Assembly (NCBI GenBank): GCA_951406725.2
Contig: OX597814.1
Location: 172,236,001 to 172,300,000 of the forward strand
DNA length: 64,000 bases
Reading direction: 5' to 3'
Source of the DNA: Octopus vulgaris
Lineage: Eukaryota
The notes under the pieces were generated by a model. It made no database searches, had not been told where the DNA came from, and saw only the letters and a list, made by a program, of their open reading frames with translations. A program made the translations under genes and the position numbers. Shown in pieces: positions 1 through 55,752 of the stretch; the stretch's first letter is position 1, and every line of letters starts with the position of its first letter.

Positions 1-741
1 ACTGAAATTTTAAAAAGTTTCCAAAACGTATAAAAGAGAATTAAAAACCAAAATTTTAATACATTTACTTTAGACGTATTAATCAAAACAATATTGTACA
101 TTTGATCAAGTACTTAGTAGAAAACGTAATAAGAAAATATCATCGGACACACACACACACACACACACACACACACACACACACACACACACACACACAC
201 ACACACACACACACACACACACACACACATAAACACACATATATATGTAAGGAGACAAGTAGTAATGAATAAATATTGAAAGAACAGACATTGACGGGAG
301 AGGGAGAGAGGTAGAGACAGACAAAGAAAGAGAAGGGAGACAGATAGATAGATAGATAGATGTAGAGAGAGAGAGAGGGGGGAGAGACGGGGACAGAGAA
401 AGATAGAAAGAGAGAAAGGAGACACAGAGAGAAAGATAAACAGAAAAGTAAGCTGTTTGTAAATCTTATGGAATTATTTATTTAGAAGTTTCTGGTGTAA
501 TGTTGAACAATTAAAAATATGAAATAAGTTTGTTGTTTTTGTTCAGCTTCAAGTTATCTGCAATGAAGCGGAACTGTAATCAAGCATGCTCTTGTCTTGA
601 CGATCCAGTTCATATATACATACATACATACATACATACATACATACATACATACATACATACATTAATACATACATATATATATATATGTGTGTGTGTG
701 TGTGTATATATATATATATATATATATTTATTATATAGAAG

Positions 742-841
742 GAGCTTCTACAGGACTAGTACTGTTTCATTCAAGAGAAATCTTCAGGAAGCTTCTACAG
801 GACTAGTACTGTTTCATTCAAGAGAAATCTTCAGGAAGCTC
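742..841 (-). ncRNA. Two tandem type I hammerhead ribozymes (742-794, 789-841)
   Basis: Minus strand reads gagcttc CUGAAGA uuuc-ucuu-gaau GAAA cag-uacuaguc-cug UA gaagcuu, repeated at a 47-nt period. Confidence 0.75.
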
Positions 842-842
842 T

Positions 843-897
843 GGAGCTTCCTGAAGATTTCTCTTGAATGAAACAGTTCTAGTCCTGTAGAAGCTCC
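843..897 (+). ncRNA. Type I hammerhead ribozyme
   Basis: Stem I ggagcttc/gaagctcc, core CTGAAGA, stem II tttc/gaat (U.U first pair), GAAA, stem III cag/ctg, GUA cleavage triplet. Confidence 0.8.
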
Positions 898-1342
898 TTC
901 TATATAATAAATTATTTTACTCTGCTATGTATTGAGTACCTTACTTACTGTGGTTAACCCCGAATCAACCCGGGACCTACATATATATATATATATATAT
1001 ATATATATTAATAGTAAATTTTATTGACTTTTATAGGTTTATAATTTTATGAACTGAACTGTGTGTTTTTTAATTATTTTTTATGTATATGTCTGATTTA
1101 AATTTAAATATGAGTGTGCATATATTTTCCTGTAGGTTAGTTTTGGAACTAGTAGCCCAATATGTAGAATAACTGTGTTTGTTAATATATATTGATATAT
1201 TTTGTTTTGTTTATTTTGTATTATTGTATTAATGAGTATATATATATGTGTAGTATTATGAGTGTCTATGCACACGTTTTTATATTTTATATTTTTATAT
1301 TTATATGTATTAAAAATTTTTTCACACTTATAATAAATTAAA

Positions 1343-1455
1343 ATCTCTGAAGAGGCCGTGGGGCATTTTTGTTAATGTCTCATTTATACCTGCCTTATAT
1401 GGCTTATAGGTTAAATGAGGCATACTTGCCCTTACGGCCGAAACAGCTGTCAGAT
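1343..1455 (+). ncRNA. Type I minimal hammerhead ribozyme with long stem II
   Basis: atct CTGAAGA GGCCGT...(extended hairpin gggca/tgccc, tgtctcattta/taaatgaggca)...ACGGCC GAAA C-agct-G TC agat. GUC site and palindromic stem III loop. It lies in an AT-rich element (~1009-1640) bounded by (TA)n. Confidence 0.88.
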
Positions 1456-52615: not shown

Positions 52616-53158
52616 TCTATTATATAAAATCGTTCTGTTTGTCTGTGTGTGTGTCTTCTAGGATCTCGGGCATCCTCCATCCGATTGCACTCAAATTTGA
52701 TATGTAGATACCGACGGTATCAGGGCGTGTATAAGTCTTGAAATAATTACAAAAATCGATTCCAGGTGAGAATGCGATCGTAAAGCCGTTTTTGTCTTGC
52801 TTTTCTTCCGTCAACCTGTACATAACTGCACCTTCTATTTTTTTGTTGTTTTTGTACTGCTTAAAGGCACGTTTCTTTCCTGCCAAGTTTACTGTTTATA
52901 CCATGTTTGTGTTCTCCCAGTCAACAGCCTTATAATTACTGGCACTTTAAATTCTTCGCTTGCTTATTTGTGTGAATAAAATCGTTTTTCTTTGGAATAG
53001 AAAAAAAGTCTATCTTTATTTCTTCTTTTGCTGGTGTCTCAAATTTAGGTTAAATCAGTGTTTTTCAAATGGGAGGACAAGTTGTTTTGAGAAATTTTGG
53101 TTTAAATGTTTAACAACTCAGCACCGTCCATTGGGTGGGTGGGGGTCGTTTTGCTCGT
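52616..53158 (+). mobile_element. Probable non-autonomous Helitron
   Basis: A|TCTATTATATAAAA..gtctgtgtgtgtgtc 5' end resembles 35101. The 3' end is degenerate (gggtcgttttgctcgt). Confidence 0.5.
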
Positions 53159-53224
53159 AATCTAATATAGTCCGTTCAAACTGCACATAAAGTTAGACTA
53201 AGTGACTATTCTTCGATAAAAAGG

Positions 53225-53790
53225 TTCTACTCAGCAAGGTCTCCGTGACAAACAATGCATTTGTGCCATCGTTGAACTCAAATTTCGAATCCTCTGTGAA
53301 AACTTCTGGTGTGCATTTTCATACACACTTCTTAACATCCACATTTACTCCGTTTGTACCATCAAACGGGTTTTTACTGGAAACAGATCTTCATTTGACC
53401 GAACAGGTGGATGTTGGAAGGCGCCAAATCCAGACTATACAGAGGTTGATGAACCAGTGGCCAGTCCATTTTGTCGATTGCCTTATTTGTTGCCAAACGT
53501 ACGTGTGGCCATGCACTATTATGGTGAATGTAGATCATTTTCAGATTCTAGTTCGATCGTTTCTCCTAATGGTTTCTCTAAGCTATTTGAGTGTTCCCGA
53601 TTGTTGTTCATGGTACAGCTACGTTTTAGAAAATGAAGGAAAAAGATGCCCTTGTCACAGAAAAAAAAAACTTCATCATAACTGTCTGTGCTGCTCATGG
53701 CTCTTGAACCCTTAGGGCCTGGAGATGAGGTATAACAACTTCCATGGACTGTTTCTTCGTTTCCGGATCATAAAGATATATCCACATTTC
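53225..53790 (-). pseudogene. mariner transposase C-terminal relic
   Basis: Minus frames give HHNSAWPH (HDNARPH-like), SLDLAPSNIHLFGQMK (YSPDLAP-like) and VQRWHKCIVCHGD. A mariner-like TIR start tacgaggtctgatcaataagt lies at 53813. Confidence 0.78.
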
Positions 53791-55392
53791 ACTCACTTCA
53801 CTATATCTGATATACGAGGTCTGATCAATAAGTATCCGGACTGTTGCTATAGTAACAAAGCTATAAAGTACGCAGAGTGAAGCCGCTGGGCAAAGATTAA
53901 CCTTGTACTCTGCTATGTATGTGCACTAAGTCTTAACGTTCTAGCTCACTTACGCTGTTTACAGTAGTTGGCTGGAACCTGCTTTTATTAGCTTCGGAAG
54001 TATGAAGGTAAAAGTGGACCTCGGTATAGTTTAAATCCAGTTTGTAAAAGGGTGGAACAAATACTAGAAAACCCGTTTTTTCCACGTTCTAATGATTCTG
54101 CCTACTTATCCCGTTTTCACACAAACATACACACACACAGACACACATATGGTTAAATGTGTTTATGTGTTGTGTGAGTATTTGATGGCTAATTCTATCA
54201 ATGACTTTTACAAGAACAAATGTAAACAATATCTACGATTCCTTCCAAATGTCAACGTCACATTCGTATTCGTTAAATGGTTGCAAAGAAATTGACTGGA
54301 TCGCATCAACGTGCTACAGACGAAAAGCAGTACATTTGAATGGATATAGTTTACGTTGTTTTCATCCGAAAGAGTTAACACTACTTATAACAATAATACA
54401 TTTCGTGTGTTACCGGATCGATGACATAAGTGCCGGCTAAAGTACTGAGGGCGATATCGTCAACAAAATCTTCTGAAAGACTGTACCACAGCAAAATTGT
54501 GGGGTTAACAACGAAATAAAAAACAATATAAGTAACATTCACCATAACATTTCTATAACTATAATCATAGAAAATAACTGTACCTATTCTTGAAATTTAA
54601 TAGTGCATCTACTCCGAAGAAATAAATTCTGATTTGATATAGTGGATTAAATATTGAAAGGTTAATTAATACTAAATGGGAGGTCTTATAATCGCCTTAA
54701 TGGATTTAACAACTTCAGATGAGATTAAGAGTAAAGACGCAGAGAGTTCTACTTGCATACATATATGCATCCTTACGTTTATGTATATATGTATGTAGCG
54801 TTACGGACATGAATTGTTTATATAGTGAGAATTAAAAACTTATAAATATAATCGTAATTAAGAGAATGTTCTAAGAATTAATATGCAAACGATTCTGACT
54901 AGAAATCGGTGTTTGTAACTTAACTAAAAGGAAGCCAGTTGAAAACTAGGGTATTAGGGTATTAGAACCGTATGCAACCTAAAGAGTTTTATTTTTCTTA
55001 CGATAGGAAATCATATGATAACTGAAGATCTGTTTCACACACACACACACACACATGCACACACACACACACACGCACAAACACTCACACACAAACACAC
55101 ACATGCACGCACGCACTCTCTTAGCTTGTTTGTTTGTTTGTTTCTCTCTCTCCCTTTCTCTCTCTCCCTCTCTCTAACACATGCACACACACATATGCAC
55201 ATGTGTGTGTGTGTGTGTGTGAGTGGTACCTCATTAACTACTTAGCAGGCCTAGATACCTTTGTTAAATGAAGGTTATAATTTAGTCAAGGTATCCCAAG
55301 CTAACTCGCAGGCGATGTGACTTCGAGATGTATACATACGTACAAGTGTATATATATATATATATATATATATATATATATATATATATATA

Positions 55393-55752
55393 TAATAATT
55401 AGGGCTAATTGCAACAAGTTGCTCAAAACCACATACCGAAAATATTAGAAATAGCAGCCAAATAGATCACTATTTCTACTACTAGTAAAAAAGTCTCCAG
55501 AAACAAACAGAATTTGTAACCCGTATATGGTAAAGAGAAAGAAGACAACGAAATCCCAGCCTATTGGATTAATTATAGACGAATCCGTTTCTGGATTAGA
55601 ACCGAAAGTCCATTTCCTTGTCAATATAATATTTCCTATAAATCTAGAAATGCTAGGAAGAAAAACTCACCCATTACACCAACTCGATCAGGCGACATCG
55701 AACGATATAACGGTCCGCTAGCATCTCTACATTTATATAGACAGGCAAATTC
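55393..55752 (-). mobile_element. HHR-bearing element in (TA)n, distant relative of the 46.7-kb element
   Basis: Shares ataattagggct, ccacatac, tagaaatagcagccaaa and atttctactact in the same order as 46687-46781. Confidence 0.72.
55572..55630 (-). ncRNA. Type I hammerhead ribozyme, U3-A8 core variant with a 5-nt insertion before stem II
   Basis: auuaua UUGACAA ggaaa ugga..ucca GAAA cg-gauu-cg UC uauaau. Confidence 0.68.

Follow-up and report, generated by a model that had tools for sequence, protein, structure and literature searches.

Penelope-type hammerhead ribozyme motifs in dispersed, (TA)n-flanked repeat families of a 64-kb window of the Octopus vulgaris genome

We analysed 64,000 nucleotides (nt) of the Octopus vulgaris genome (assembly GCA_951406725.2, contig OX597814.1, positions 172,236,001 to 172,300,000), here called the window, for type I hammerhead ribozyme motifs carried by short repeats. 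The window holds 14 such motifs in 11 families (A, B, C, D, E, F, F2, G, H, J, and K), all dispersed genome-wide. The results favor, with a probability of about 0.85, Penelope-type hammerheads, in which B and D are truncated ends of coding Hydra-clade Penelope-like elements (PLEs) and most of the other families are non-coding and likely mobilized in trans by a Penelope protein with reverse transcriptase (RT) and GIY-YIG domains. Copies of a family stop at one of two fixed 3' ends, called short and long, and labels such as L211 and L322 denote other genomic loci or copies that were compared. The features are as follows (UTR, untranslated region; ORF, open reading frame).

727..981, plus strand: family A mini-element, a long arm of 139 nt (843-981) and an inverted short arm (727-842) with a 47-nt duplication
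743..793, minus strand: A hammerhead, duplicated on the inverted arm, predicted cut after 749
789..841, minus strand: A hammerhead of the inverted arm, predicted cut after 796
843..897, plus strand: A hammerhead, C3-G8, U.U at the base of stem II, 4-bp stem III, predicted cut after 889
1006..1659, plus strand: family B, assigned to a Hydra-clade PLE as its 3' end, truncated on the 5' side, with 97% identity to the 3' UTR in the ORF-bearing copy L322
1343..1455, plus strand: B hammerhead, long branched stem II, palindromic stem III
14904..15421, plus strand: family C, 1.23 non-coding units, unit length 421-429 nt
15152..15224, plus strand: C hammerhead, minimal palindromic stem III, pair 10.1-11.1 varying between G-C, A-U, and A.C
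26493..26858, minus strand: family D, probable 3' end of another PLE of the Hydra type, with its short-end arm on the minus strand and the inverted long-end arm (26718-26858) on the plus strand
26609..26662, minus strand: D hammerhead, descriptor match
31625..31957, both strands: family E mini-element of ~210 nt, long arm 31625-31808 on the minus strand, short arm 31813-31957 on the plus strand
31828..31878, plus strand: E hammerhead, G3:C8, extra G after A9, G10.1-C11.1, all-A/U palindromic stem III, U17
32841..33170, minus strand: family F, old copy, ~80% identical to its relatives, decayed hammerhead at ~32975-33042
33175-33281: F2 piece of 107 nt, 5' of the F copy
34252..34793, plus strand: family G, non-coding unit of 356 nt present 1.52 times
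34533..34578, plus strand: G hammerhead, U3-A8 core
35493..35948, plus strand: family F2 copy, hammerhead at 35701-35775 with U4C in this copy
42775..43680, plus strand: family H, 1.39 units (490 nt) on the plus strand, inverted arm 42775-43001
43454..43554, plus strand: H hammerhead, long stem II, 5-bp stem III
46674..48035, both strands: family J, inverted pair of 566-567-nt units between (TA)80 and (TA)65, short-end arm on the minus strand and long-end arm on the plus strand
46872..46934, minus strand: J hammerhead of the left arm, descriptor match
47692..47754, plus strand: J hammerhead of the right arm, predicted cut after 47748
55381..55756, minus strand: family K, truncated copy of a 555-559-nt unit
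55572..55630, minus strand: K hammerhead, U3-A8 core, first stem I pair varying between A-U and G-C

For motif detection, we used a type I hammerhead descriptor that comprises the core NUGANNA with a Watson-Crick 3-8 pair, a stem II of at least 3 bp, GAAA, stem III, UH, and a stem I of at least 4 bp, or at least 6 bp in a strict setting. The controls were 30 local dinucleotide shuffles of the window. The descriptor matched 12 sites, against a shuffle mean of 1.0 (maximum 4), and 10 sites under the strict setting, against a mean of 0.07. Nine of the 12 matches have a C3-G8 core, two a U3-A8 core (34533+ and 55572-), and one a G3-C8 core (31828+). A first-pass annotation of the window had listed hammerheads in about ten dissimilar contexts, which were resolved here into 11 families; 12 of its 14 coordinates were recovered within 2 nt, and the remaining two are damaged homologues. 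At 32979-, an old family F copy, the first pair of stem I is broken, and the motif is intact in L230; at 35701+, the F2 copy carries U4C, and the motif is intact in L233. The Rfam comparison that the annotation had proposed turned out negative, with 0 hammerhead matches at the gathering score in the window and no hammerhead among the weak matches listed (150 of 245), which were microRNA models on simple repeats. We attribute the absence of gathering-score matches to Rfam models that do not cover these variants. The output of a general repeat finder was dominated by microsatellites. The window motifs have the conserved core and the three-way junction of helices I-III that define type I hammerheads, and they are real rather than chance matches.

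For conservation, nine families were scored, each with its 18-25 best-matching copies; a deviation is a letter that differs from the commonest one in its column. Core positions deviated in 8 of 2156 cells (0.4%), against 583 of 26346 (2.2%) in flanking columns, the latter figure being inflated by indels and CpG sites. The stem covariation for which the annotation had suggested looking was present in stem I of K, in stem II of C, and in the 3-8 pair across families. The first stem I pair of K is A-U in 12, G-C in nine, G-U in one, and A.C in none of 22 copies, whereas pair 10.1-11.1 of C, also in 22 copies, is G-C in five, A-U in six, and A.C in 11. The 3-8 pair is C-G, U-A, or G-C depending on the family; U3-A8 is retained in 22/22 copies of G and 21/22 of K, and G3:C8 in 25/25 copies of E, whose hammerhead is otherwise the standard minimal PLE form with an extra base after A9 and G10.1-C11.1. 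To our knowledge, the reversed G3:C8 catalytic pair is otherwise known only as a laboratory rescue mutant. The covariation is at the subfamily level, each case representing one or few events, yet in the predicted direction. Only one of 17 aligned F copies passes the descriptor; U4C occurs in six of the 17 (plus one CpG-decayed form) and in two of three F2 copies viewed, and may be a subfamily trait rather than decay.

The insertions of these families share one layout. The two fixed 3' ends delimit a tail of 77-87 nt in J, 44 nt in G, ~110 nt in H, ~70 nt in C and A, and ~60 nt in E. A (TA)4 run lies within 16 nt of the standard 3' end in 132 of 138 arms of J, G, H, and C, against 4.8% of random positions. 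Among 48 inverted pairs with their tails outward, 44 combined a short and a long end, one was short-short, one long-long, and two were unclassifiable; therefore, one short and one long end were found in 44/46 classifiable pairs (p=3e-11 against 50%). Ten repeat views of insertions already included, as well as two near-duplicate loci, had been removed from these counts. The E inverted pairs followed the same rule in 20/21 cases, and a clear inverted short arm stood beside the long arm in 18/20 A loci, a count biased by the selection of long arms. Overlaps of 1-4 nt were common at the junctions of inverted pairs, and the insertions show the PLE signature of partial tandems, 5' truncation, an inverted 5' copy, and a tail at one end. 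These results suggest that one complex might prime both target strands, one from each site. A single telomere-like hexamer near some 3' ends was set aside as a signal, since it is likely due to chance.

Families J, G, H, C, and K occur as perfect head-to-tail units of fixed length, up to 3.5 copies, with one type I hammerhead in each non-coding unit, which is the arrangement of retrozymes. The unit length is 487-491 nt across H copies and 421-433 nt across C copies (428-429 in most, 421 in the window). The natural tandems of J, G, H, C, K, and A gave no PLE protein match and contained no ORF longer than 113 codons. A and E lack the tandem organization of non-LTR retrozymes (LTR, long terminal repeat), and their 5' ends are fixed. 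In A, a tandem was found in one of 20 loci, with a natural unit of 154-157 nt (~157 in L211). In E, no true tandem was found in 25 loci, the same 5' end was reached by 41/58 arms, and a 541-nt spacing in L173 was rejected as a repeat unit because it separates two insertions. The (TA)n flanks, partial tandems, and inverted arms of the first-pass annotation were thus recovered, except that A and E are mostly not tandem. Its unit lengths of 356, 421, 490, and ~566 nt were found as well, the 555-559 nt of K are near its ~540 nt, and no unit of ~600 nt was found.

Two further likenesses between families were observed. J (window 47860-47940) and K (55400-55480) have a common 3' segment, with 77% identity over 69 nt, despite different ribozymes; related segments are present in L033, L056, L063, and L078, and a common recognition signal is possible. 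A and E carry a pyrimidine-rich CAG at the 5' edge of stem I (window 843-851 and 31813-31842) that resembles a 3' splice acceptor. The Drosophila Penelope intron is reported to end at the corresponding position near the ribozyme, although reading the A and E motifs as splice acceptors is speculative.

The window itself gave no tblastn match with two PLE proteins, in agreement with the annotation, which saw no Penelope RT/GIY-YIG ORF there. In the genome, a GIY-YIG search returned 148 matches, many within 781-codon frames. The intact 781-aa protein is of the Neptune type, with RVT_1 and GIY-YIG domains (Pfam), DKG, YLDD, and a CX4CxxC linker, and its elements have terminal repeats at both ends, which carry a hammerhead core of the U3-A8 form and terminate in (TA)n. 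A second conserved frame of ~350 codons lies upstream of the RT frame (L101:1406-2482 on the plus strand; also L105, L109, L113, L114, and L116), and it had no convincing Pfam match. The youngest Neptune subfamily (L101:6060-6100) keeps the U3-A8 core with a weakened stem I, whereas older subfamilies pass the descriptor.

B and D are joined to Hydra-type coding sequence with no TA break between, and therefore their window copies are the truncated ends of coding elements. Relatives of B have an intact single ORF of 955-960 aa in which DKT, YRDD, and CxCx5C, plus a C-terminal GIY-YIG without CCHH, were read from the sequence. The B element is ~5.5 kb long, with an AT-rich 3' UTR of 2.3-2.7 kb and RWR where RWK has been described. 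Its protein had no Pfam or PDB match and only a weak match to the Neptune GIY-YIG (E 0.003). B has both Hydra-clade features, a hammerhead in the terminal repeat and (TA)n insertion, and by its motifs and layout we assign it to the 3' end of a Hydra-clade PLE. D is linked to a second Hydra-type GIY-YIG fragment in L304 and L306. Since two of the 11 families are PLE ends, part of the set is ordinary debris of pseudo-LTRs (pLTRs). The claim of a non-autonomous set consequently stands for several families and not for B (1343) and D (26609). The proposed search for RT/GIY-YIG linkage connected B and D to coding sequence and yielded none for J, G, H, C, K, A, or E among the PLE ends examined. Apparent links to PLE coding sequence of C (L292), K (L406), and J (L003) were rejected as nested or adjacent insertions.

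Young Hydra-type copies (L382, L383, and L384) form long tail-out or tandem pairs with the same ORF break (434-472 + 444 codons), which suggests that a defective Hydra-type subfamily may be spreading in trans. Additional hammerhead families that are absent from the window were seen in L033, L039, L040, L043, L055, L064, L065, L074, L078, L079, L082, L089, L109, L119, L253, L372, and L373.

The arms also carry information on the template. The predicted cut site was spanned by 91/108 arms, and 5' ends fell within 5 nt of the cut in 4/108, against 2.7 expected, with no general enrichment; therefore, the usual template is something other than a cleaved linear monomer. In H and C, 8/27 and 6/20 of the 5' ends lie within 30 nt 3' of the cut, a window chosen post hoc, and one lies exactly at the cut (L167), which hints at cleaved templates or at stalling at the ribozyme. 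Divergence was lower within than between insertions, at 0.6-0.8% vs 1.05% in J, 1.1-1.3% vs 2.8% in G, 1.7-1.8% vs 3.9% in H, and 2.4-2.9% vs 4.7% in C. Private variants were common to tandem units in 14/141 cases and to inverted arms in 25/157; L007 has two of them on each of its four parts, and L025 has two on each of its 3-4 units. When a variant recurred across several insertions, every overlapping part had it in 135/199 cases, and no variant tracked unit rank consistently across insertions. The circular folding of J, G, H, and C monomers was better than that of shuffles (z -4 to -7), and the GC content of J, G, H, C, and K is 0.31-0.45. This pattern fits insertion units copied from one monomer, possibly a circle; the same pattern would arise if a homogeneous tandem copy were transcribed and served as template, or if gene conversion followed insertion. 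We put a ribozyme-made circle as template at about even odds.

The events would run as follows. Intact ORFs of the Hydra and Neptune types are present in the genome, and the copies of these elements themselves terminate in (TA)n. Such a protein would bind the element RNA and nick (TA)n. Reverse transcription would then begin at one of the two fixed internal sites, 44-110 nt apart, which we equate with the PLE tail seen in vitro (PMC11167929). Both target strands would be primed, from the short site on one and the long site on the other, and the cDNAs joined head to head into the inverted pairs observed. The copies indicate that synthesis usually passes the ribozyme cut site, for up to 3.5 units with the same variants throughout, so that the template would be one repeated monomer, most simply a ribozyme-made circle, or else the uncleaved transcript of a homogeneous tandem copy. 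The ribozymes with a short palindromic stem III would presumably cleave slowly, as dimers or with protein help. The proposal in the annotation of diversified non-autonomous RNAs mobilized in trans is thereby kept for several short non-coding families, which need an RT in trans, and dropped for B and D, which are PLE ends.

Several observations weigh against non-coding derivatives copied from circles. No autonomous PLE 3' UTR examined resembles J, G, H, C, K, A, or E, in a comparison that covered a minority of the PLE families of the genome. The non-coding status concerns families other than F and F2, and the copies compared were the best-scoring 20-30 per family, a biased sample. The 5' ends of A and E are mostly fixed just upstream of the ribozyme and their tandems are rare, which a circle does not explain; moreover, the A monomer has no folding advantage over shuffles (z -0.5). 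Private variants are mostly unshared (127/141 for tandem units and 132/157 for inverted arms), as post-insertion mutation predicts, and those that are shared could derive from gene conversion or rare unsampled subfamilies. Outside the octopus, eight of nine Xenopus retrozyme dimers are reported to show no in vitro cleavage (10.64898/2026.07.22.740005), and in the one purified PLE system insertion did not require hammerhead cleavage, with unprocessed RNA serving as the principal substrate (PMC11167929).

The last point leads to the strongest alternative, in which non-autonomous PLE derivatives are copied from linear uncleaved multimers, the hammerhead is mainly structural or protein-binding, and circles are uninvolved. 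It has the protein, the nicking, and the priming from two sites in common with the preferred explanation, and only the template differs. The 5' ends ignore the cut site (J 1/30 and G 0/31 within 5 nt), stem III is weak in most families, the youngest Neptune subfamily has many intact copies despite its weakened stem I, and the in vitro data favor a linear template (PMC11167929). However, the core and stems are kept with compensatory changes, the units fold like self-paired circles, the 5' ends of H and C cluster just 3' of the cut, and the rank-specific variants that heterogeneous multimer sources would give are lacking. We consider linear multimers a serious candidate at somewhat below even odds. 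A second alternative, that all families are 5'-truncated pLTR ends of autonomous PLEs with tandems as pLTR duplications and no non-autonomous class, is true for B and D, may hold for F and F2 as well as for A and E if their parent is unsampled, and is in line with the insertion signature, which is the same as in autonomous PLEs (PMC8557442). As an account of the whole set it appears improbable, because in J, G, H, C, and K 2-3.5 units of constant length follow one another perfectly head to tail without intervening coding sequence, and the PLE ORFs near L003, L292, and L406 are, where inspected, separate nested insertions. Finally, chance motifs in AT-rich, repeat-rich DNA would account for the loose shuffle matches and the silence of Rfam, yet this idea is refuted by the strict-setting excess, the family-wide conservation and covariation, and the location in PLE ends.

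Abundance was estimated from forty evenly chosen 10-kb stretches (400 kb) of the 2.8-Gb assembly, a small sample in which some hits are paired arms. The descriptor found 21 matches, against 1-9 in shuffles (mean 4.2), and 13 matches with C3-G8 only, against 0.4. From these 400 kb, the genome total extrapolates to about 118,000 motifs (62,000-195,000), and C3-G8 motifs alone to about 88,000 (46,000-153,000). The descriptor misses real motifs, such as those of the young B subfamily, and the window is ~3-4 times richer than the sample. Reported counts elsewhere, obtained with other descriptors, are ~5,000 in the mussel and 120,000 in the axolotl, whose genome is ten times larger. Since Rfam misses all window motifs, counts of ribozymes in genomes of this kind are probably severe underestimates. 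The boldest version, in which ~100,000 circularising hammerhead RNAs of dozens of families are rolled into (TA)n by a Penelope enzyme priming both target strands at two fixed sites of a single RNA, including a high-copy G3:C8 ribozyme, is tentative and on balance rather unlikely.

Arguments on how animal retrozymes enter genomes still draw chiefly on co-occurrence and on the similarity of pLTRs. In this genome, young non-coding families with the full Penelope signature are present together with intact candidate enzymes of two clades, which makes partner choice, the role of cleavage, and the choice between circle and multimer testable in vitro. The pairing of one short with one long end in inverted insertions places a constraint on how PLEs integrate, and the descriptors used in hammerhead searches would become broader with a natural G3:C8 core.

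The contig that carries the window is the largest in the assembly. The window is AT-rich, microsatellite-dense, and rich in long interspersed elements (LINEs) and Tc1 elements, with the following further features.

3118-3394, 33948-34224, 40730-41006, 58669-58945, and 61981-62257: copies of a repeat of ~277 nt resembling a short interspersed element (at least five copies), TA-flanked, with no hammerhead match
11138-11536: two 199-nt tandem copies, 96% identity, no hammerhead match
13285-14459, 24989-25726, 41422-42087, and 60522-60926: LINE-like broken fragments (one weak zf-RVT match; class by eye)
16357-17506: gag-like zinc-knuckle frame
23641-24442: Tc1-type transposase remnant (HTH_Tnp_Tc3_2)
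53206-53715: mariner-like remnant (by eye)

We found no paper describing cephalopod cases beyond a count of 235 Rfam hammerheads in the giant squid. The literature, as far as its accessible parts go, gave no natural G3:C8 core, only U3-A8 as a natural variant and C3G/G8C as a rescue mutant. Lunse et al. in 2016 reportedly described PLE hammerhead variants that cleave as dimers, and these may already include G3:C8 or cephalopod examples.

For PLE pLTR hammerheads, 4,000-9,000 motifs have been reported, and a circle template was already proposed for copies longer than one unit (PMC4209133). The motifs of that report and ours are type I, with a small palindromic helix III, an extra base between 9 and 10.1, and a U3-A8 variant, and both sets include opposite-strand pairs 100-700 bp apart and many families per genome. 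In contrast, several families here have a stem II of 44-85 nt, the estimated number is far higher (with different descriptors), and the natural G3:C8 core of E finds no mention in the available parts of that report.

Circular RNA has been shown at the RNA level for coral, mussel, and axolotl retrozymes, and the title of a 2026 preprint claims non-LTR retrozymes as non-autonomous PLE derivatives (10.64898/2026.07.22.740005). As in these retrozymes (PMC7229834; 10.64898/2026.07.22.740005), the octopus families consist of non-coding units in tandem, each a few hundred nt long and carrying one type I hammerhead, with GC of at most 45%, self-paired folding, and co-occurrence with PLEs. Unlike them, the arrays are short (1-3.5 units), dispersed, and (TA)n-targeted, with the full PLE tail and inversion signature; the units reach 567 nt and have no sequence link to a parent pLTR among the PLE ends compared.

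B and probably D have in common with Hydra-clade PLEs (PMC8557442) the C-terminal GIY-YIG without CCHH, DKT, the CxCx5C linker, the hammerhead, and (TA)n. Those elements are generally under 3 kb with RWK, whereas B is ~5.5 kb, with 955-960 aa and RWR; RWK and a length <3 kb are general rather than strict features of the clade. The Anolis Poseidon PLE (PMC11167929) likewise has two fixed 3' ends that define a tail, AT-rich targets, and ends unrelated to the ribozyme cut. Its tail differs from the 44-110 nt found here, and it showed no strand difference in start site in vitro, whereas the octopus inverted pairs almost always use one site each. The kind of system is already known, since PLE hammerheads, non-LTR retrozymes, and (TA)n-targeting, hammerhead-bearing Hydra PLEs have been described, and the families may already be catalogued as repeats; the points that stand out are the short/long rule, the G3:C8 family, and the motif density.

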